Assembly (NCBI GenBank): GCA_041308885.1
Contig: JBFZAQ010000096.1
Coordinates: 1 to 41,012, forward strand
DNA: 41,012 nucleotides
Direction: 5' to 3'
From: Candidatus Omnitrophota bacterium
Lineage (GTDB): Bacteria > Omnitrophota > Gorgyraeia > Gygaellales > Profunditerraquicolaceae
Part shown: positions 6,281-41,012 of the stretch, piece by piece
How positions within the stretch are numbered: position 1 is the first letter of the stretch
Layout of the letters: each line of letters starts with the position of its first letter
Notes under the pieces: model-generated
Database searches by the model: none
Told to the model about the DNA's origin: nothing
What the model saw: only the letters and a program-made list of their open reading frames with translations
Made by a program: the position numbers and the translations under genes

Positions 6281-6330
6281 TGCAACCTCGATTAACCTCG
6301 GTTAACCCTGATTAACCTTGGTTAACCTGC
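6281..6330. repeat. Five tandem 10-bp units (A/G)TTAACCYYG containing two GGTTAACC palindromes
   Basis: Sequence tgcaacctcg attaacctcg gttaaccctg attaaccttg gttaacctgc. The array encodes the last 9 codons and the stop of queH. Confidence 0.85.
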
Positions 6331-6874
6331 CTTGACTCTTTTTTTTTATGCGGCTGCGCTCTAATTCCGAATACAAACACCCGCAGTATTTCTGACAGTA
6401 GATCCCTTGGGCCCTGGCTTTATTATGCGCCTCCCGGAAACCGGGACGAAAATCTTCATAGTAGAAATCTACTGCCTCTTGAAGCCCGATATCCGTACCT
6501 ATTGTCTTTAGCCTCTCCTGATCCTGATAAGGACTAACCAAAAGGGTTGTCGAGAAATAAGGAATACCCTTTTCCTTGGCGATTTTGGCGGTCTGGCGTA
6601 AACGCAGCTCCCAACAGATGGCGCACCGACCGGGAATTGCTTCCCGCATATTCACCGCGCGAAAGAATTCCTGAGGTTCATAGGCAGCATATAAAACCTC
6701 GACCCCCGCAGATTGACTAAGCGCCTCTACTGCCTGCCGGCGCATTTTATACTCGCTTAGAGGATGGATATTCGAATTACAAAATAACCCCACCACCTCA
6801 AACCCCTTAGCCCGCAGGCTCTCCAAAGGATAAATCAAGCATGGGGCGCAACATATGTGGAAGAGTAATTTCAT
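6302..6874 (-). CDS. queH: Epoxyqueuosine reductase QueH (DUF208 family)
   Basis: MKLLFHICCAPC N-terminal cysteine motif plus CAICW and CGC cysteines typical of QueH. Confidence 0.8.
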   Translation of the reverse strand: MKLLFHICCAPCLIYPLESLRAKGFEVVGLFCNSNIHPLSEYKMRRQAVEALSQSAGVEVLYAAYEPQEFFRAVNMREAIPGRCAICWELRLRQTAKIAKEKGIPYFSTTLLVSPYQDQERLKTIGTDIGLQEAVDFYYEDFRPGFREAHNKARAQGIYCQKYCGCLYSELERSRIKKKSQGRLTKVNQG

Positions 6875-6878
6875 AATC

Positions 6879-7301
6879 TCATTCTTTTAGCGGGGTAATA
6901 TACTTTTTGATAAATTTTTCGATATATCGCACTACTTCTTCTTTAGCATTGCTGGGGCTAGCGGCGACCCAAACTGCGAAATTATAAAGGGTTTGCGTGT
7001 CTACTCTCATCCATTTGTTATTATTATAAAGCATATAAAACAGAGTTGTAATGGCTATTCTTTTGTTGCCATTCTGAAACGGATGATTCTTAATCATTAG
7101 ATAGAAAATCACGCTCGTCTTGCCGGCAAAAGTGGGGTATAGGTCCTTTTTAGCAAAAGACTGAAACGGCGCTGATAGACAGCTCTCCAACACGTTAGGA
7201 TAACGGGTGCCAAAATCAGGAATCGGTTCATTAAAAGACAGGCTTTGCTGCGCTAATCTGAAAGCCACTCTCTCAACCTCTTCGACCATTAATGGCTGCA
7301 T
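6879..7301 (-). CDS. doc: Doc (death-on-curing) / Fic-fold toxin
   Basis: HPFQNGNKRIA matches the Doc variant of the Fic motif (H-x-F-x-N-G/A-N-K-R). 140 aa. It overlaps the upstream small HTH gene by 1 nt. Confidence 0.85.
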   Translation of the reverse strand: MQPLMVEEVERVAFRLAQQSLSFNEPIPDFGTRYPNVLESCLSAPFQSFAKKDLYPTFAGKTSVIFYLMIKNHPFQNGNKRIAITTLFYMLYNNNKWMRVDTQTLYNFAVWVAASPSNAKEEVVRYIEKFIKKYITPLKE

Positions 7302-7570
7302 TATGCCTGCCCTAAAAGTTTTAGAACTTCCCCGTATTCCTGAACGGTTTTTTCCACCGCCTTATCAATTTTATTCTTTGCGGCATCTCCCAAAGGTCTA
7401 CCACTAACGGCCACTGTGTTTTCCCTGACATAATCTTGGGGAATAGCGAAGCTGCGGCCTACCCTAATGGCTTTAATTTTACCCTGCTTTACTTGCTTAT
7501 ACACGGCAATCCGGCTTAATCCCATAATCTTGGCCAGTTCGGCAATGGAAATAAATTCTTTCTCTTTCAT
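7301..7570 (-). CDS. Excisionase/MerR-type HTH DNA-binding protein, probable antitoxin of Doc
   Basis: ISIAELAKIMGLSRIAVYKQVKQGKIKAIRVGRSFAIP is an excisionase-family HTH. There is a GGAG RBS, and the gene sits immediately upstream of doc with an overlap. Confidence 0.7.
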   Translation of the reverse strand: MKEKEFISIAELAKIMGLSRIAVYKQVKQGKIKAIRVGRSFAIPQDYVRENTVAVSGRPLGDAAKNKIDKAVEKTVQEYGEVLKLLGQA

Positions 7571-7720: not shown

Positions 7721-7858
7721 TTAGCCTTGTTTAGCTTCGCACTTATTGCACACACCCGGCTCTTTAATCGAGGGCTTTACACCAAACAGTTTCAGGGGTA
7801 TCCACTTATACAGGAATCCTTCCAGCGGGACTTTGCATTTCCTACACTTCTTAGGCAT
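7721..7858 (-). CDS. Unannotated 45-aa zinc-ribbon-like protein
   Basis: ATG at 7858 is preceded by AGGAG about 7 nt upstream. Hand translation: MPKKCRKCKVPLEGFLYKWIPLKLFGVKPSIKEPGVCNKCEAKQG, with CxxC...CxxC. It is below the ORF-track length cutoff. Confidence 0.6.
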   Translation of the reverse strand: MPKKCRKCKVPLEGFLYKWIPLKLFGVKPSIKEPGVCNKCEAKQG

Positions 7859-7904
7859 GATACACTCCTGTCCCATTAATTATGCGTTTGCGGGGTTCAT
7901 CGCG

Positions 7905-8050
7905 GGCATAAAGACTGCTGCGGGGCTTTTTTACGCACGCAAAGCAAATCCCTGCGCAAATTATAGAGGCGCCCAGAAAAACGCAAGCCTTACCACCCGC
8001 AAACACGTCTTAGCCTCAAACCCAATAAAACCAAAAACGTCCCTATTTTT
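7905..8050. repeat. A-unit direct repeat, copy 1 (uninterrupted)
   Basis: About 90 percent identical by eye to 8085-8119 plus 8240-8352. The shared block is caaatccctgcgcaaattatagaggcgcccagaaa.acgcaagccttaccacccgcaaacacg... Confidence 0.85.
7960..7986 (-). promoter_or_regulatory. Candidate sigma70-type promoter inside A-unit 1, reading toward the 45-aa ORF
   Basis: On the minus strand: TTGCGT (7986-7981), 15-nt spacer, perfect TATAAT (7965-7960). The same hexamers are conserved in A-unit 2 at 8288-8283 and 8267-8262. The short spacer lowers confidence. Confidence 0.35.
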
Positions 8051-8084
8051 CTTGCACTTTACAGACTTGTAGAACCCTCCCAAC

Positions 8085-8352
8085 GGCATAAAGCTTGCTG
8101 CGGGGCTTTTTTGCGCACGAAAATTTTTTCCGTGCGCTACGGTTTGCCGCTCGCTACGGTACCTACTTACGCAAAGCCGATTACGTACCTTCGCTCGCGG
8201 CAAATCCTTGCAGACTTTTGCCAAAAATTTTCTAACGCCCGCAAACCAAATCCCTGCGCAAATTATAGAGGCGCCCAGAAATACGCAAGCCTTACCACCC
8301 GCAAACACGCCTTAATCTCAAATACAATAAAACCAGAAACGTCCCCTATTTT
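8085..8352. repeat. A-unit direct repeat, copy 2, interrupted by hairpin element B1
   Basis: 8085-8119 aligns to 7905-7939 and 8240-8352 aligns to 7938-8050. The intervening ~120 nt has no counterpart in copy 1. Confidence 0.85.
8113..8239 (-). repeat. B element copy 1: ~125-nt rod-like imperfect hairpin
   Basis: The reverse complement aligns end to end with 9102-9225 and 9363-9485 (ggcgttagaaaattttt...ggaaaaaatttt). Internal stems are ttgccgc/gcggcaa and ggtac/gtacc. Confidence 0.85.
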
Positions 8353-8357
8353 ACCAA

Positions 8358-8876
8358 CTATGCCCGTTGTAAAACTTCCTTAAATTTTTTGTAGAATAAA
8401 GACTTTCCCAGCCCGCTATAATATTTAATATTAATATCATAATCCTTAAGAGCATTTTTTGCTTTATCGCTAATAAACTCCGGATTCTTAATACGGAACC
8501 ATGCTTGATATATCGACATATCCTCAGGTATGTCGTTAGTAAGCATGATATACATTTCTACGGCGTCCAATAATAAATATTCCGTCTGCGCAGGATTAAA
8601 TTCTAATAAAGCAGACTGATCCCTATCCGCGTGTTTAAAGAAATTCTCCGCCTCGTTGACGGCGGATAAATACAAGCTAGCCTTGTCTTGTCTAATAATA
8701 TCTAATGCTAAACCTTTCACAAGTGATTTAACCCCTTTAGATCCTGATATATCCATTAATATCTGATGCGCAGCTGCCGTTAGTGTATGAATCGATATCG
8801 GGTCAGCGTCATTAAAAAAAAGACTAAGAGCAACGTCTAATTGGCGCCGTGCGGCGTCGATTTTTGATATTTTCAT
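8358..8876 (-). CDS. Hypothetical 172-aa protein, predicted all-helical, no recognised catalytic motif
   Basis: Clean ATG ORF. I recognise no Shine-Dalgarno sequence and no family. It is flanked by inverted B elements. Confidence 0.6.
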   Translation of the reverse strand: MKISKIDAARRQLDVALSLFFNDADPISIHTLTAAAHQILMDISGSKGVKSLVKGLALDIIRQDKASLYLSAVNEAENFFKHADRDQSALLEFNPAQTEYLLLDAVEMYIMLTNDIPEDMSIYQAWFRIKNPEFISDKAKNALKDYDINIKYYSGLGKSLFYKKFKEVLQRA

Positions 8877-9101
8877 TTGATTTTAGTTTAAATATCGCAA
8901 ATTATCGTAACAACTAAAAGAGTCTTTGTTCACTCGCGACAATCTCATTGTTCGTAAGAAATATCCGCCTTTTTGACTTTAGCCTTAATCACCTATACGG
9001 ACCATTCACAACAGATCCAAGTAGCGGATGACTCAAATCACGTGCCACGGATCAGAGCGGCAACCAGCGATTTGAAATTTTGCGCAGGGATTTGGTTTGC
9101 A

Positions 9102-9225
9102 GGCGTTAGAAAATTTTTTGCAACAGTGCGCAAGGATTTACAGCGAGCGGAGGTTAGTTACCGTATTACGTAAGTCGTAACCGCAGCGAGCTGTAAACCG
9201 TAGCGCACGGAAAAAATTTTAGCCC
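9102..9225 (+). repeat. B element copy 2 (pairing extends to about 9078-9250)
   Basis: Stems gtgcgc/gcgcac, tttacagc/gctgtaaa and gttac/gtaac. The left flank tttgcgcagggatttggtttgc is the reverse complement of the A-unit segment that flanks B1. Confidence 0.85.
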
Positions 9226-9337
9226 GCAAAGCAAATCACGGAGCAAAATTTGTGGCGTAGCACAAACGCCGGCGCGGAAAACCATCCCAAGGCCGAACCC
9301 GCTATATGCGACGCTCGGAAAAATTTTTTCCTCGTCT

Positions 9338-9507
9338 AGATTTTATGACTTTGATGTGCGGCGCGTTAGAAAATTTTTGGCAAAAGTCTGCGAGGATTTA
9401 CAGCGAGCGGAGGTTAGTTATCGTATTACGTAAGTCGTAACCGCAGCGAGCTGTAAACTGAAGCAGACGGCAAAAATTTTAGCGCCGCGCACAAAGTCAT
9501 AAAATCT
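9338..9507 (+). repeat. B element copy 3 with extended basal stem (~170-nt hairpin)
   Basis: agattttatgacttt (9338-9352) pairs perfectly with aaagtcataaaatct (9493-9507). The core 9363-9485 is about 90 percent identical to copy 2, with stem gtctgc/gcagac replacing gtgcgc/gcgcac. Confidence 0.85.
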
Positions 9508-9566
9508 CTGCTGGAAAAAATTTTCCGTTCACAAGCGAATCTACAGAACCCCACTCCTCTTCTATA

Positions 9567-10634
9567 TCAAAACAACTCTTCTTGTTTCTCGTAGGGCATG
9601 CCGAAGTGTTCGTAGGCAAGTTTTGTGCAGATGCGGCCGCGGGAGGTGCGCTTGAGGTAGCCGCTCTTAAGGAGATACGGCTCGACGGTGTCCACGATAG
9701 TATCTACTTCTTCATTGAGACTGGCGGCTAGCGACTCTACACCCACGGGTCCGCCGCCATAAGATTGCAGCATAGTCTTTAAGACTCTACGATCCAGATC
9801 ATCGAATCCGGCCCGATCCACCCCCAGATCATCGAGGATCTTAGCCACGGGAGACTTCTCGATAACCGCAAGCTTCTGCACCTGGGCGTAATCGCGCACG
9901 CGGCGCAAAAGCCGATTTGCCACCCGGGGCGTACCTCGGGCCCGCCGGGCAATCTCATCCGCGGCTTCCGCCGCCACATCGATACTTAAGGTTTTTGCCG
10001 AATGCAGTATAATCGTAGCCAAGTCCTCGAGCTTATAGAAGTCCAGATGGTAAAACATCCCAAATCGGCCGCGCAGCGGCGCCGAAATCAGGCCGGCCCG
10101 GGTCGTCGCCCCGACTAAAGTAAAAGGCTTGAGATTAAACTTGATCGTCTTGGCGTAAGGCCCCTTATCAATCACAAAGTCAATCTGAAAATCCTCCATC
10201 GCCGGATACAGGAATTCCTCAACCACGCGGGAGAGCCGATGGATCTCATCGATGAAAAGAATATCGCCCTTCTCCAGATTAGTCAGGATACCGATTAAAT
10301 CCCCGGCCCGCTCAATCGCCGGGCCGGAGGTTGAGGTAATCTTAGCATCCATTTCCCGGGAAATTATATGGGCAAGGGAAGTCTTACCTAATCCGGGGGG
10401 TCCGGAAAGCAGAATATGCTCCAGCGGCTCGCTGCGCTGTTTGGCCGCAGAAATGCAGACTTTTAAATTCTCGAGGGTGTCTTTTTGGCCGATAAATTCA
10501 TTCAACCGGCTTGGCCGCAGGGAGAGATTTAATACAATATCCTCATCGGTTTCCTGAGTTCCGGCAACTACCCTTTGCTCAAGATTGTTATCGACATCCT
10601 GACCCTTAATGAGTTTCTGCCGCGTCTGTGACAT
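9567..10634 (-). CDS. ruvB: Holliday junction branch-migration helicase RuvB
   Basis: LRPSRLNEFIGQ, Walker A GPPGLGKTSLA and DEIHRL motifs. Confidence 0.92.
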   Translation of the reverse strand: MSQTRQKLIKGQDVDNNLEQRVVAGTQETDEDIVLNLSLRPSRLNEFIGQKDTLENLKVCISAAKQRSEPLEHILLSGPPGLGKTSLAHIISREMDAKITSTSGPAIERAGDLIGILTNLEKGDILFIDEIHRLSRVVEEFLYPAMEDFQIDFVIDKGPYAKTIKFNLKPFTLVGATTRAGLISAPLRGRFGMFYHLDFYKLEDLATIILHSAKTLSIDVAAEAADEIARRARGTPRVANRLLRRVRDYAQVQKLAVIEKSPVAKILDDLGVDRAGFDDLDRRVLKTMLQSYGGGPVGVESLAASLNEEVDTIVDTVEPYLLKSGYLKRTSRGRICTKLAYEHFGMPYEKQEELF

Positions 10635-12347: not shown

Positions 12348-12357
12348 ATGCTAGTTA

Positions 12358-12437
12358 TAAATGACCAATTCCCAAATCTCAAATCCCAATGAATTACCAA
12401 TGACCAATGTCTAATTGGGTTTGGTAACTGGTTATTG
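12358..12437. repeat. NNNCCAA-heptamer palindromic element, copy 2 (right arm truncated at the infB stop)
   Basis: Sequence aatgaccaattcccaaatctcaaatcccaatgaattaccaatgaccaatgtctaattgggtttggtaactggttatt. Confidence 0.8.
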
Positions 12438-20044: not shown

Positions 20045-20164
20045 AAAATCCCAATGGCCAAATCCCAAACTCCAATGAATGTCCAATGAATCAATTACCA
20101 ACGCGCTATTGGAAATTGGTTATTGGTAATTCATTGGGGCTTGGTAATTGGAATTTGGTCATTT
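20045..20164. repeat. NNNCCAA-heptamer palindromic element, copy 3
   Basis: Sequence aaaatcccaatggccaaatcccaaactccaatgaat...attcattggggcttggtaattggaatttggtcattt. It contains the rseP stop codon. Confidence 0.9.
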
Positions 20165-21238
20165 AAATAGTTTCGCTATCTTATCCCCAAAGAACCTTAC
20201 CACATCATTATACGTCACTACAACCGCCAGCATTATCATTATCGTCATGCCTACGCGGGACACATAAGCTTCGGCTCTCTGGCTTAAGCGCTTCCCGGTG
20301 ACTTTCTCTATCCCCAGCAATACCAGATGCCCGCCGTCCAATATCGGGAGCGGCAAAACATTAAACAAGGCCAAGCTGACACTCAACACCGCGATAAGAT
20401 GCACCACCGCGATAAAACCCATATGCGCGGCTTCCGAGGTAATATAAAAAATGCCTAACGGGCCGGTAACCGACTCTCTAACCGACATCTTACCCGTGAT
20501 CATACGCCAGAGGGCTTTATAAGTCAGCACGGTTAAGTCTAAGGTTTTTTTAGCAGCCAATATACCGGACTGAACAAAGCTATGTTTAACCGTAATCAGC
20601 TCCTCATGCGGCGTTATGCCTAGTAAACCAACGCTCCTTTTTTGTCCCAGCACATCAGCAAAGTCTTTGGCTTTAATTGCGGTCCTGATGCTTAATTCCC
20701 GGCTCCCGCGAACTATCCGTAACTCTGCCGTTGTCGGGGCCTGCTTAGCTTGAATGGTCTCCTGTAACTCATCCCAATTATGCACCCGCTTTCCATCCAC
20801 GGACATAATCGTATCCCCGGCCTGCAAGCCCGCTTCCTGAGCTCCGTACCCCTCAATTACACTGCCGACCTTTGACGTAAGCGTGGGGTAACCAACAAGA
20901 AAAATAAACCAAAAGAATACAAAACCCAGCGCGTAATTCAATAACGGCCCGCAGATAATCACTTTGGCCCGCGCTCCCGGTGATTTAGCTAAATATTCAT
21001 CCGAGGCTCCTTTACTCTCCTCAATTGTATCCCCGGCTAATTTAACGTATCCGCCAAGAGGAATAGCGCTGATACTATATTCGGTCTGGCCGCGCTTTTT
21101 CTTGGCTAATATCGGGCCAAAACCAAGCGAGAATTTTTCCACCCGGATACCGACTCGCCGGGCCATATAATAGTGGCCGAATTCATGAACGATGATTAGA
21201 ACACCTAATACTAATAAGAAAATAAAAAGTGATAGCAT
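20159..21238 (-). CDS. rseP: RIP zinc metalloprotease RseP (site-2 protease)
   Basis: HEFGHY motif, one PDZ domain, C-terminal LDGG motif, GGAG RBS. Confidence 0.9.
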   Translation of the reverse strand: MLSLFIFLLVLGVLIIVHEFGHYYMARRVGIRVEKFSLGFGPILAKKKRGQTEYSISAIPLGGYVKLAGDTIEESKGASDEYLAKSPGARAKVIICGPLLNYALGFVFFWFIFLVGYPTLTSKVGSVIEGYGAQEAGLQAGDTIMSVDGKRVHNWDELQETIQAKQAPTTAELRIVRGSRELSIRTAIKAKDFADVLGQKRSVGLLGITPHEELITVKHSFVQSGILAAKKTLDLTVLTYKALWRMITGKMSVRESVTGPLGIFYITSEAAHMGFIAVVHLIAVLSVSLALFNVLPLPILDGGHLVLLGIEKVTGKRLSQRAEAYVSRVGMTIMIMLAVVVTYNDVVRFFGDKIAKLFK

Positions 21239-21267
21239 ATTATTCTCCGTCGCCGTAAGTTAACTGT

Positions 21268-21327
21268 CCAATGACCAAATCCCAATTGGAAATTGGTTAT
21301 TGGGATTTCATTGGGATTTGGTCATTT
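21268..21327. repeat. NNNCCAA-heptamer palindromic element, copy 4 (short)
   Basis: Sequence ccaatgaccaaatcccaattggaaattggttattgggatttcattgggatttggtcattt. It contains the dxr stop codon. Confidence 0.9.
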
Positions 21328-30740: not shown

Positions 30741-30757
30741 AAAACACTCCTCTGTAT

Positions 30758-30869
30758 GAATGACCAATGACCAAATCCCAAATCCCAATGAATTACCAAT
30801 AACCAAATCCCAATTAGACATTGGTCATTGGGGTTTCATTGGGATTTGGTCATTGGGGTTTGGTCATTT
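30758..30869. repeat. NNNCCAA-heptamer palindromic element, copy 5
   Basis: Sequence gaatgaccaatgaccaaatcccaaatcccaatgaat...ttcattgggatttggtcattggggtttggtcattt. It contains the stop codon of the 596-aa gene. Confidence 0.9.
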
Positions 30870-32654
30870 CTTAAGTATCTTCTCCAGCTCCTGCTTCGCC
30901 GGAGCTCCTTTAGTGGAAAATATCTCTTGGTTATCCACCAAGTAGCTCGGGCCAAACATAATCTCCAGTTCCTTATTCAGGCGGATATTTTCGCGCAATA
31001 ACTTCTTGCCTTCTTCACCTTGCGCGCAGGACTTGATCTTAAGCGTATCCGCTGCGCCCTTTAGACAATCATCCCACCAGGAAGAGCTTAAGTTGCCGGA
31101 CCGGCAAACCAGATAATCCCAGAAGGTCTCGGGATAATATTTCTCGATGCACACGCCTTTTAAATATTCTTCTACCTCTACTGATCCCTTGGCCGCGTCA
31201 AAACCAGCGTCTTTCTCAACGGCTAAAAAATGTACCTCGGGAGAAAAAGAACGAACGACTTCCAGCGTCTTATTCGCGCCGGCATCGAAGAGGCTTACAA
31301 ATATATCTAAAGCACCCGCCTTCCTACCGCGTTTGAGAAAGAAAGAAACCCCGCTCACCTGAGGCTTAACCAGATAAACATCCCCTACAAGATCGACCCT
31401 ATCTTGAAGCATTTCAAAGTTCTTCTGCCGCTCTATGTCTTTATCAAAAACATAGGCCGGCAGACGGCTTAAGCCTAATTTGGCAATCATCTCCTGAGCG
31501 CCGGGATCCGGATAATACAAAGTAGACACTGTTAATCCCGGAAATGGCTTCTTTAAGAAATCAACAAATTGCTGCGGGCTGCAAACCTTACACGCCTTAG
31601 GGGTAATCACCGTCAAGCCCACTTTAACCGGCTCGCTAAAAACGCAGCTGGCTTTTAACGTTGCGGGATCCTGGCAAGTGCCAACCAGCCCTTCTTGCTT
31701 ACAATTATCGTCGGAAAAACAGCGCGGCAAAAATTCGACGATCTCCCGGTCATCGGCAATATCCGCAGACAAACGGAGTTGTTCGGCTTGGTGAGAAATA
31801 ATCTTTCTATCTTGGATATTTAACTTCAGAACTCCGAGCTTTCTCCCCTGCCATGACGGCCACACAATGATCGTCTGCCCGATTTTAGAAACGATTTCTC
31901 CTTGCGGATGCGCAATACCGGCGATAAGCAGATCGATCCCCTTGACTTGGTCTAACAGTTTCGCATCTTCGGCATCACTCTGGTGGCTCAAAAGTATAAT
32001 CAAATCAACTTTCTTGCCCCTAAGCTCAGCTACAGTTTTGGCCGCCGCGGACTTAGGATCAATGATCGGTAACCCACCGGATTTCGGCGCGGCACTAAGC
32101 GGGGTAAGGCCGATAATGCCGATTTTTAACCCGGAAACCTCTTTAAGTACATACGGCAAAAAAGGCTTTGCTTGAATATTATAGGAAAGAAAGGGGATCT
32201 TGGTCTTGGCCGCGTTATCTAATAGATATTCTTTGCCGAAATTAAACTCATCGTCTCCAACGGCAACCGCATCATAGCCCATGACCTCCATGCCCTTCAA
32301 CTGCAAATTAGTGCGCTGCATATCCAACTGCACATTCTGGGTATACTGATCCAAAAGGCCGCCGGCAAAGTAACTTCCGGAGTCAACCAGAATAACTCCC
32401 GGCGAGCTTTTGCGCAGCTGCTTGATCAGCGTGGCCCGGCGGGCCAATCCCCCGTCGCGCTCAATCGGGCAGTTGCATTGATAAAGCATCGCGTGGGTCT
32501 GACCGGTATACAAAATAGTCAGTTCTTCAGCCTGAACATAAGACGCAGGACGCAGGACGCAGGACGCAATAAGAAGGATTAGAAACGCGCAACTTTTTCC
32601 TCCTAAGCTTGCGTCTTGCGTCTTGCGTCTTGCGTCTATAATTTTCGCGCTCAT
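30864..32654 (-). CDS. Secreted fusion: 5-prime-nucleotidase/metallophosphatase-like N-terminal domain with substituted metal ligands, plus Cys-rich thioredoxin/DsbA-like C-terminal domains
   Basis: ILYTGQTHA, VDSGSYFAG, GDDEFNFG, LSHQS and AGIAH align to the ND-HG, DAGD, GNHEFD, SH and GGHSH motifs of UshA-type enzymes, but most ligands are replaced. The C-terminus has CKVC (CxxC) and a DsbA-like end. The ATG overlaps the serA TGA (ATGA). Confidence 0.6.
   Translation of the reverse strand: MSAKIIDARRKTQDASLGGKSCAFLILLIASCVLRPASYVQAEELTILYTGQTHAMLYQCNCPIERDGGLARRATLIKQLRKSSPGVILVDSGSYFAGGLLDQYTQNVQLDMQRTNLQLKGMEVMGYDAVAVGDDEFNFGKEYLLDNAAKTKIPFLSYNIQAKPFLPYVLKEVSGLKIGIIGLTPLSAAPKSGGLPIIDPKSAAAKTVAELRGKKVDLIILLSHQSDAEDAKLLDQVKGIDLLIAGIAHPQGEIVSKIGQTIIVWPSWQGRKLGVLKLNIQDRKIISHQAEQLRLSADIADDREIVEFLPRCFSDDNCKQEGLVGTCQDPATLKASCVFSEPVKVGLTVITPKACKVCSPQQFVDFLKKPFPGLTVSTLYYPDPGAQEMIAKLGLSRLPAYVFDKDIERQKNFEMLQDRVDLVGDVYLVKPQVSGVSFFLKRGRKAGALDIFVSLFDAGANKTLEVVRSFSPEVHFLAVEKDAGFDAAKGSVEVEEYLKGVCIEKYYPETFWDYLVCRSGNLSSSWWDDCLKGAADTLKIKSCAQGEEGKKLLRENIRLNKELEIMFGPSYLVDNQEIFSTKGAPAKQELEKILKK
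32541..32637. repeat. Intragenic heptamer palindrome inside the signal-peptide codons of the 596-aa gene
   Basis: agacgcaggacgcaggacgcaggacgcaa (32541-32569) against ttgcgtcttgcgtcttgcgtcttgcgtct (32609-32637). The mismatches are G:T wobble positions. Confidence 0.85.
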
Positions 32655-36282: not shown

Positions 36283-36302
36283 ATACACCTCCGTATTAAA
36301 TT

Positions 36303-36405
36303 TCCAATTACCAATGACCAAATCCCAATGAATACCCAATTGCCAAATCCCAATTGGGTATTGGTTATTGGTAATTCATTGGAATTTGGGGCTTGGTCAT
36401 TGGTA
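36303..36405. repeat. NNNCCAA-heptamer palindromic element, copy 6
   Basis: Sequence tccaattaccaatgaccaaatcccaatgaatacccaattgcc...ggtaattcattggaatttggggcttggtcattggta. Confidence 0.9.
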
Positions 36406-36412
36406 TTTTTGC

Positions 36413-40611: not shown

Positions 40612-40633
40612 AGCGCTCGACCTTATATTCTTG

Positions 40634-40736
40634 AAATCCCAATGACCAAATCCCAAGCCCCAATGAACGACCAATTACCAATTCTCAATTGAGATTTGGT
40701 TATTGGAAATTCATTGGGATTTGGAAATTGGGATTT
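40634..40736. repeat. NNNCCAA-heptamer palindromic element, copy 7
   Basis: Sequence aaatcccaatgaccaaatcccaagccccaatgaac...aaattcattgggatttggaaattgggattt. Confidence 0.9.
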
Positions 40737-40743
40737 AGTGATT

Positions 40744-41012
40744 TTATAATACCTTTTCTATATTCTTAATCTCTTTGAGCAACTTAGTAAGAGCCTTATA
40801 ATCAATCATATTCGGCCCGTCACACGGCGCTTCGTCCGGCCGCGGATGGACCTCGAGGAACAATCCGTCACAACCAAAAGCAGCTGCCGCCCGCGCTAGG
40901 CCGGCCACAAACTCCCGCCGGCCGCCCGATGAACCGCCTTTCCCGCCCGGCAGCTGAACACTATGCGTGGCGTCGTAAATGACCGGATACCCGAAATCCC
41001 GCATGATCTTCA
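40744..41012 (-). CDS. kdsA: 2-dehydro-3-deoxyphosphooctonate aldolase (KDO-8-P synthase), C-terminal part; the gene continues beyond the window
   Basis: [15 protein letters not shown] and LFLEVHP motifs. The reading frame stays open to the window edge (..KIMRDFGYP). Confidence 0.88.

Follow-up and report, generated by a model that had tools for sequence, protein, structure and literature searches.

What are the three long imperfect hairpins, B1, B2 and B3, that lie close together on contig JBFZAQ010000096.1 of a Candidatus Omnitrophota bacterium (assembly GCA_041308885.1)? The analysed stretch, hereafter the window, is the entire 41-kb contig (41,012 nt) of this metagenome-assembled genome (MAG). 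A sequence-only reading of the window had suggested that the hairpins are either a functional RNA or a substrate of single-stranded-DNA recombination or transposition, with a geometry resembling a cassette bounded by structured sites. The comparisons described below indicate that B1–B3 belong to a small, previously undescribed hairpin repeat family of uncultured Omnitrophota. We consider it somewhat more probable than the alternatives combined (probability roughly 0.55) that they are low-copy, lineage-restricted non-coding repeats, similar to REPINs and miniature inverted-repeat transposable elements (MITEs), which were moved via a single-stranded hairpin. The general suggestion of the sequence-only reading therefore stands, with transposition as its favoured part, whereas the cassette geometry found no support.

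Three related hairpins between ruvB and queH

The hairpins are located at positions 8108–8245 (B1, minus strand, core ~8113–8239), 9075–9251 (B2, plus strand, core 9102–9225) and 9316–9526 (B3, plus strand, core 9363–9483). They matched the covariance model of the family with 149 bits (B1), 156 bits (B2, at 9096–9232) and 145 bits (B3, at 9356–9492), and are 85–91% identical to one another. B2 (9103–9223) and B3 (9363–9483) are direct repeats, 91% identical and 260 nt apart. B1 is inverted with respect to both, and the segments that it shares with B2 (8178–8262/9079–9163 and 8110–8174/9166–9230) are 85–86% complementary. A 22-nt flank, TTTGCGCAGGGATTTGGTTTGC, adjoins B1 (8241–8262, minus strand) as well as B2 (9079–9100, plus strand). 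Together with this flank the two hairpins form the ~150-nt inverted repeats that had been described around the open reading frame (ORF) at 8358–8876, here called ORF172.

Compared with dinucleotide shuffles the RNA folds had z scores of −5.5 (B1), −3.9 (B2) and −6.8 (B3), and the folds computed with DNA parameters had z scores of −3.4, −5.3 and −7.1, respectively. When the outer stems were included, B3 (231-nt fold) reached −102 kcal/mol and a z score of −10.4. The rods thus fold beyond shuffled controls, at the positions where the sequence-only reading had placed them. A degenerate pattern of the core matched exactly these three sites of the window, with none expected in shuffled sequences.

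The compensatory changes reported earlier for the outer, middle and apical stems are all present in the sequences. In the outer stem GTGCGC/GCGCAC of B2 is replaced by GTCTGC/GCAGAC in B3, in the middle stem TTTACAGC/GCTGTAAA alternates with TTTGCCGC/GCGGCAAA, and in the apical stem GGTTA/TAACC with GGTAC/GTACC. The outer stem of B1 is a hybrid, in which GTCTGC lies opposite GCGCAC and the helix is partly broken. The perfect 15-bp basal stem attributed to B3 was found at 9338–9352/9493–9507 (gattttatgactttg/caaagtcataaaatc), as part of a copy-specific outer stem (9338–9362/9484–9507). A/T palindromes of the GGAAAAATTTTTTCC type bracket B3 at 9316–9331 and 9511–9526. In the outer stem of B2 the flank motif faces a degenerate inverted version of itself (9075–9104/9222–9251, a 30-nt inverted repeat with 83% complementarity), and the fold pairs these flanks.

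Further copies in other Omnitrophota

Two covariance models were used: the first was built from B1, B2, B3 and a copy from a metagenome contig (L027), the second (R2) was a rebuilt version. With filters off, B1–B3 were the only matches of the first model in the window, whose remaining 39.6 kb contain no copy. A covariance-model scan for more copies, which the sequence-only reading had proposed, yielded four beyond B1–B3, in L027, L087 and L109/L110. L027, a JGI metagenome contig, was the only true relative recovered by scanning metagenomes with the core pattern. Its copy has the same core as the B copies, a different apex, and a perfect 24-bp outer stem of its own. In L087, an Omnitrophota MAG contig that was reached through a 68%-identical homologue of ORF172, the first model detected two copies, C1 (4560–4692, minus strand) and C2 (3678–3826, minus strand). 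An orthologue of C2 was found in L109/L110 with R2. In total, the family comprises seven copies at five independent loci on four contigs, with R2 scores of 77–143 bits. An R2 scan of ~235 kb of other Omnitrophota loci revealed no copies; the hairpin family is rare.

The suggested Rfam search showed that no family matches the B hairpins. With Rfam 15 there was no match in the window at the gathering threshold and nothing convincing at E≤10; the best sub-threshold match near the hairpins, STnc220, scored 20 bits against a threshold of 60. L027, L087 and L109 had no Rfam match either. A 27-base core pattern, which was too strict, did not match in genome contigs. A looser pattern hit mainly Myxococcota (Anaeromyxobacter) repeats in genomes, the other hits being mostly coding and none of them from Omnitrophota, and nothing related in viral contigs. 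No similar sequence was found in plasmid and phage collections, and there was no match in 5,426 E. coli genomes (blastn, word size 11). A search of the literature on Omnitrophica or Anaeromyxobacter repeats returned nothing relevant. One candidate member, a 27-nt inverted repeat in L098, was rejected: part of it resembles a tRNA T-arm, and it appears to be a segment related to tRNA.

Modular architecture of the element

The element is a rod of 125–210 nt. Its modules are described here as read on the strand carrying the purine mismatches (see below). Two inverted end modules, 5′-AGARATTTTTKGCA..GTCTGCRAGG and CYGNAGCAGACGGCAAAAAWYT-3′, are conserved in all seven copies. The left module consists of an A/T palindrome, GGCA, a short or long bulge, GTCTGC and AAGG, the right module of CYG-N-AGC, AGAC and GGCAAAAAAT. 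L027 and C2 carry inserts in bulges. The inner core of B1–B3 and L027 reads GCGAGCG-N-AGG...CC-G-N′-AGCGAGC: GCGAGC lies opposite GCGAGC, which creates tandem G.A pairs, and the N/N′ position covaries (A-T, G-C, T-A). C1 and C2 have the same ends and the same apical loop (GTAGCGACAATCTTCTATGGAGCGTAAC), whereas their middle stems are wholly different and still paired.

Around most copies there is a further outer stem, up to 28 bp long and different from copy to copy. In B1, C1, C2 and L109 the flank beside the end module is complementary to the neighbouring stem arm (e.g. GCAGAC-GGCAAAAAATCTC-GTCTGC). Each end is therefore able to fold into a small hairpin by itself, and two interchangeable conformations are available to the whole element, the rod and a set of three hairpins. 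For B1 the latter is the fold of minimum energy. All copies are intergenic; B3, C2 and C1 are located directly after the stop codons of ruvB, of an M29 peptidase gene and of a gene encoding a 222-aa protein, respectively.

Covariation and strand asymmetry

Covariation was assessed in an alignment of the seven copies fitted to the model structure; the copies are few and related. Standard pairs occupied 94.9% of the cells, and 20 of the 38 pairs had changes on both sides. None of 500 column shuffles reached any of the five covariation measures. When the partners were slid by 1–3 columns, only 35–47% of the cells were paired and 1–2 double changes were left.

The C2 orthologues of L087 and L109 allowed these changes to be set against a clock. 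The cores are 90% identical, compared with 80–88% identity at four-fold synonymous sites of the flanking genes. The C2 core sequence thus drifts at approximately the neutral rate. The 28-bp outer stems of the same two copies differ by three double substitutions that preserve pairing: GCCGAC/GTCGGC vs GCAGAC/GTCTGC, CCCTG/CAGGG vs CTCTG/CAGAG, and GTTTA/(T)AAAC vs GTTCA/(T)GAAC. Templated mutation of quasi-palindromes is an established model. With so many double changes in a short time, selection on an RNA would be no better an explanation than self-templated palindrome correction in DNA. The earlier view that structure was kept through sequence change is upheld by the 20 double changes and the 500 shuffles. 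Covariation by itself is no proof of selection on a functional RNA, since long DNA palindromes acquire ‘compensatory’ changes even when they diverge neutrally.

The imperfections of the hairpins are distributed unevenly between the strands. Six extended hairpins contained 53 purine-purine mismatches (G.A/A.G 29, G.G 14, A.A 10) vs 11 pyrimidine-pyrimidine mismatches (C.T 7, T.T 3, C.C 1), and 18 G.T vs 8 A.C wobbles. Some mismatches persist in all copies, with a strong purine bias on one strand. This purine strand was the more stable one in all five copies that were folded on both strands. Relative to the flanking genes the purine strand runs antisense in five of the six non-orthologous copies, or at four of five loci, B1 alone being in sense orientation. 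We conclude that the single-stranded form of one particular strand matters, as DNA or as RNA.

Gain and loss at orthologous sites

The 222-aa gene between C1 and C2 is an Omnitrophota-wide core gene with 145 homologues; those named by source are all from Omnitrophota, except one labelled Deltaproteobacteria. As this gene is conserved, the sites on its two sides can be compared between relatives. The C2 site extends from the stop codon of the M29 peptidase gene to the 222-aa gene. In L101–L108 (89–91% protein identity) it is 14 nt long (..GAATTAG CAC AGGAG..), with TAG-CAC/CAT-AGGAG in L101 and L105. The spacer has this length of 14 nt in three relatives and measures 56 nt in a fourth. In L087 the site is ~205 nt long and consists of the 28-bp outer stem and the C2 core. 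The orthologous copy is present in L109/L110 (95% identity), and there is no hairpin in L111 (76% identity). The comparison of relatives for presence or absence, which the sequence-only reading had called for, thus showed that the hairpin is variably present at this site. Comparison of the filled sites (L087, L109) with the empty ones (L101, L105, L111) revealed no target-site duplication. Because 205 nt comprising outer stem and core stand against 14 nt, the unit gained is the entire extended hairpin.

The C1 site of L101 is occupied by no more than a 13-bp hairpin, either a precursor or a remnant, which is homologous to the C1 flank in its loop and right arm. L105 and L111 have no hairpin at this site. 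L086, a relative with 95% RuvB identity, was initially taken for an empty B3 site. This was withdrawn, as the L086 contig ends 6 nt into the site. L086 shares the B3 outer stem arm, and its last 6 nt (AGATCG) are possibly the start of a diverged element.

Within the window, B1 is a 122-nt extra segment in the second unit of a tandem duplication of 180 nt (~7880–8060 and 8060–8362, minus strand; repeat spacings 180 and 302 nt, unit alignment). The first unit is without B1. It contains a third copy of the flank motif, with one mismatch (TTTGCGCAGGGATTTGCTTTGC, 7939–7960, minus strand), which is either an empty site or a deletion scar. The junctions carry 18-nt imperfect direct repeats, TTTGCGGGCGTTAGAAAA and TTTTCGTGCGCAAAAAAG, which include part of the element end; the repeats at the B1 site are ambiguous in extent (6–18 nt) and also compatible with deletion. 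Slippage deletion of B1 from the first unit is therefore as likely as insertion into the second. A solo right-end module, GCGACGCTCGGAAAAATTTTT, which resembles the 3′ end of the core, lies at 9304–9328 (plus strand) and was seen in two direct-repeat families.

Origin of the hairpins

According to the explanation that we favour, the element would spread, or would have spread, folded as single-stranded hairpin DNA, with cutting and pasting, or copying, left to an enzyme whose gene lies in another part of the genome. The lack of target duplication, the strand-specific imperfections and the possible end hairpins point to movement of single-stranded DNA by an enzyme of the HUH/Y1 type. Transposases of this type act on imperfect hairpins, strand-specifically and without target duplication. 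For these reasons a HUH/Y1-type transposase such as RAYT or the TnpA of IS200/IS605 would fit best. After insertion the pairing of the arms may be kept in part by self-templated palindrome correction in replication, which would produce the ‘compensatory’ changes. Persistence of the purine-purine mismatches might reflect either a requirement of the enzyme or a lack of tolerance for perfect long palindromes. B1–B3 probably derive largely from local duplication and inversion of one extended copy, because B1 and B2 share 22–30 nt of flank, with which they were therefore copied together, and because B2 and B3 are 91% identical. If transcripts are affected, for instance by being terminated or stabilised downstream of ruvB, this would be a secondary effect.

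The closest parallels are found among known intergenic repeats. A REPIN consists of two conserved inverted modules around a spacer that is limited only by its length and its ability to form a hairpin, and compensatory changes are frequent (PMC3116915). The Omnitrophota elements likewise have end modules that are conserved in 7/7 copies and inverted around a variable spacer that still pairs, as seen in the middle stems of C1 and C2. They also share with REPINs the extragenic position, the absence of target duplication, the strand-specific single-stranded structure and the possibility of small end hairpins. Small hairpins are formed by REP units and by the ends of IS200/IS605 elements. REP/REPIN families are usually abundant and dispersed. 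In contrast, the copy number observed here, in parts of genomes, is very low and clustered instead of amounting to hundreds of dispersed copies, and the Omnitrophota family has long copy-specific outer stems. No Y1_Tnp domain (RAYT) was found in the window, which is one contig of the MAG. An IS200/IS605-derived PATE or a TnpB omega-RNA remnant would be marked by a constant target tetranucleotide 5′ of its left end, by subterminal hairpins at both ends and by tnpA/tnpB in the genome. Here, end hairpins are possible in four of the seven copies, and there is no tnpA or tnpB in the window. The core is preceded by TTAG in B1–B3 and L027. TTAG was rejected as a fixed IS200/IS605-type target of the whole family, as C1, C2 and L109 have AATC or AATA at this place.

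ERIC/IRU elements (~127-bp imperfect palindromes) are similar in length, rod-like, intergenic in or near transcription units, and present or absent at orthologous sites. Shorter ERIC forms with internal deletions and longer forms with internal insertions have been described, and the short hairpin of L101 and the bulge inserts of L027 and C2 are reminiscent of them. The phylum is different, and similarity in sequence is absent (no match in 5,426 E. coli genomes); the comparison is descriptive only. Classical MITEs (Correia/NEMIS, RUP, Nezha) are also short, non-coding and hairpin-forming, with several intergenic copies. The Omnitrophota hairpins differ from them in three respects: the one clean gain has no target-site duplication, no parent insertion sequence sharing the ends was found in the window or in the fetched loci, and conservation is modular (ends, loops, mismatches) rather than confined to terminal inverted repeats.

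Nearly all structured intergenic repeats described so far (REP/REPIN, ERIC, MITEs) come from cultured Proteobacteria and Firmicutes. The present family is a documented structured intergenic repeat in the uncultured phylum Omnitrophota, with filled and empty sites, modular conservation and strand-specific mismatches. Hairpins of this kind disrupt metagenome assemblies, give rise to spurious ORFs such as 7961–8308 and 8111–8383, which overlap B1, and are open to misreading as RNA genes or attC sites. If the mobilising enzyme were found, the hairpins would represent a new type of substrate for single-stranded-DNA transposition.

A number of observations weigh against the favoured explanation. No transposase was found in the window (Pfam) or seen beside any copy, and the mobilising enzyme is purely inferred. 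The copies are few and clustered, with three in 1.4 kb of the 41-kb window and none in its other 39.6 kb or in the ~235 kb of other Omnitrophota loci. Gain was documented in two lineages only, and the ‘empty site’ within the window is equally explained by slippage between the 18-nt imperfect direct repeats. The GTAG hallmark of REP sequences is not conserved: the equivalent position reads GTAG, GCAG, GAAG or GGAG (GNAG), and the end modules contain A/T palindromes. The core helices alone have even wobble counts (G.U 6, A.C 5), so the asymmetry between the strands is carried by the outer stems and by mismatches in internal loops. Finally, conserved loops combined with freely covarying stems are equally expected of a structured RNA, and a good −10 box lies just upstream of B1, on the correct strand.

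These last points belong to an explanation that we regard as unlikely and that has to be taken seriously: the hairpins would be ~130-nt structured non-coding RNA genes, transcribed from the purine-mismatch strand, locally duplicated and occasionally moved. The product could act in regulation, as an antisense RNA or by binding protein, with a possible link to the neighbouring toxin/defence-type genes. B1 lies ~25 nt downstream of the TATAAT of a TTGCGT-N15-TATAAT box, in the right orientation, its purine strand being the minus strand and the sense strand of the genes; however, no promoter-like or terminator-like signal is common to the copies. Loops, bulges and tandem G.A pairs are conserved while the stems covary freely, but orthologous copies drift at about the synonymous rate, and copy-specific outer stems of up to 28 bp would be unusual for an RNA gene. 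The bias of the purine mismatches to one strand and the greater stability of this strand (5/5) suit an RNA as well, and its antisense orientation at 4/5 loci would suggest independent transcription. The copies lie in or near islands with HEPN-like, MNT/HepT and Fic/Doc genes, whereas a consistent protein partner did not emerge, the checked ORF172 homologues being without hairpins, and there is no Rfam family. The gain of a complete hairpin between tightly spaced core genes resembles an insertion of mobile DNA.

We judge it improbable that the hairpins are host transcript elements, i.e. bidirectional terminators or mRNA 3′-end stabilisers recruited from repeated DNA. The intergenic position of all copies, often directly after a stop codon (B3, C1, C2), would suit this role, but the relatives manage with a 14-nt spacer at the C2 site and three copies are stacked in 1.4 kb. 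The stems are flanked by A and T runs; however, the T run is within the stem and does not follow it. The 13-bp hairpin of L101 at the C1 site, with its homology to the C1 flank, and a second hairpin family at seven gene ends (see below) are consistent with such a function, whereas termination does not require mismatches or end modules to be conserved.

It is very improbable that the hairpins are merely the product of local decaying duplication and inversion of one palindrome, maintained by self-templated correction, with neither mobility nor function. The clustering of the window copies, the flank shared by B1 and B2, the 260-nt distance between B2 and B3 and the lack of a fourth copy in the window would be expected, and self-correction of the palindrome explains double changes at the neutral rate. 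On the other hand, copies with unrelated flanks are present in L027, L087 and L109, which are different organisms, the site at which the element was gained measures only 14 nt in relatives, and end modules and mismatches are conserved between genomes whose ORF172 proteins are only 68% identical. The copies in other genomes largely refute this explanation. The sequence-only reading had reserved it for the case that covariation, further copies and strain-level rearrangement at these sites were all lacking; instead, covariation and further copies were found, as was presence/absence variation between relatives.

That B1 and B2 are attC-like single-stranded recombination sites bounding an ORF172 cassette and used by an integron-type tyrosine recombinase is highly improbable: size, imperfect-hairpin form, conserved unpaired bases and the single ORF flanked by B1 and B2 agree with it, but B1 is inverted relative to B2, unlike the co-oriented sites of attC arrays, the 5′-terminal GTTAGAA of the purine strand and the 3′-terminal TTCTAAC of the opposite strand are the reverse of RYYYAAC...GTTRRRY, GTTAGAA is absent from C1, C2 and L109, the L087 hairpins flank a core gene, checked ORF172 homologues are without hairpins, and there is no integrase in the window. 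The likeness to attC sites (imperfect hairpins of 60–140 nt, structure conserved more than sequence, unpaired bases, use in single-stranded form) is thus a general one, and the core-site arrangement, the mixed orientation and the missing tie to a cassette or an integrase set the Omnitrophota hairpins apart. The notion of a cassette bounded by structured sites had to be given up, as the ORF172 family is widespread, its checked homologues (L055, L088–L100) have no hairpin copy, and C1 and C2 flank a core gene. A link between ORF172 and the hairpins was seen only in L087 and was rejected, and the 222-aa gene, conserved Omnitrophota-wide, was rejected as a cassette or partner.

Gene content of the contig and the accessory island

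Protein neighbours assign the contig to Candidatus Omnitrophota. All credible genes of the window are on the minus strand. The housekeeping genes (Pfam) include tgt, queA, queH, ruvB, scpA, infB, nusA, ispG, dxr and uppS, as well as purA, clpP, tig, lpt genes, a class-Ib (Trp/Tyr-type) tRNA synthetase gene and others. The sole accessory island of the contig is small and lies between ruvB (9567–10634) and queH (6302–6874); B1, B2 and B3 are all located within it. The absence of integrase, transposase and reverse transcriptase genes from the window, stated earlier, agrees with a Pfam search of all substantial ORFs. On the minus strand, the island encodes a Fic/Doc protein (6879–7301) and an HTH_17 protein (7301–7570), both recognised by Pfam/PADLOC, a Cys-rich protein of 51 aa (7721–7876, from translation) and ORF172 (8358–8876).

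ORF172 is a conserved all-helical protein, a neighbour of the hairpins and not part of them. It had been called an orphan, which is wrong: it has 256 homologues at E≤1e-3. The family has invariant N-F-x-K-H-A..D residues. PADLOC gave a weak match to UzuA (1.9e-5). The AlphaFold model is all-helical (pLDDT 90), and its best match in the PDB was AbiV, a HEPN protein (TM 0.48–0.54, E 0.3, not significant); other HEPN proteins were also among the best, non-significant matches. The predicted likeness to AbiV/HEPN is weak and serves as a lead only. Because homologues are neighboured by restriction-modification, GmrSD and recombinase genes in L055 and by MNT/HepT genes in L087, ORF172 may be a defence or toxin protein.

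The duplicated 180-nt units described above sit upstream of the 51-aa Cys-rich ORF. On the minus strand each unit contains a sigma70-like TTGCGT-N15-TATAAT box, which was recognised in the sequence itself; the consensus scanner did not flag it. The leader downstream of this box begins with TTTGCGCAGGGATTTG, a motif that also forms the B2 outer stem. Three ORFs of 90–115 aa, 7961–8308 (minus strand), 8111–8383 (plus strand) and 7746–8072 (plus strand), cross B1 and the duplicated promoter units. They are almost certainly repeat artefacts; 7961–8308 and 7746–8072 had no family match.

Two further observations concern the relatives. L101 has a tRNA-like sequence (9330–9410) downstream of the 222-aa core gene, where L087 has an accessory island, and this variable site may be a tRNA-linked integration hotspot. 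In L087 a ~300-nt non-coding segment with multiple hairpins (6870–7170) is situated between a frameshifted ORF172 homologue and the MNT/HepT pair. It has a 21-nt inverted repeat at its bounds and is unrelated to the B family.

Other hairpins

Other hairpins are likewise framed by the 22 bases specified in the B core (GCGAGCG-N-AGGT ... ACC-G-N-AGCGAGC, including the G.A mismatches). Examples among L001–L053 and L057–L085 are L048:13088–13129, L071:1242–1283, L059:1604–1660, L083:2626–2668 and L016:509–551. In Anaeromyxobacter and other Myxococcota the core bases frame a high-copy 42-nt hairpin repeat, which is followed by G-runs and a second hairpin. Single hairpins of this kind occur in a Planctomycetaceae MAG and in a Bdellovibrionales MAG, and one was found in a soil viral contig. 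The hairpins of the other phyla had no Rfam match and are in mixed orientation relative to genes, and covariation of N/N′ was not found in the Anaeromyxobacter copies. It seems doubtful that the inner core (tandem G.A plus a G.A / N-N′ / A.G loop) is a structural module shared across phyla, the alternative being convergence. If it were shared, the core would show which site a hairpin-specific enzyme or an RNA-binding protein recognises, and the Omnitrophota family would be one branch of a widespread class of hairpin elements.

The window contains a second hairpin family, unrelated to B: rods of ~60–120 nt with CCAAT/ATTGG-rich modules (CCAATGACCAAATCCCAAT...) at seven intergenic sites between housekeeping genes (~85–205, 12356–12420, 20045–20170, 21265–21326, 30755–30870, 36295–36410 and 40630–40750). 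The four copies that were folded had z scores of −5.6 to −12.7. In this contig the second family is far more abundant than the B family.

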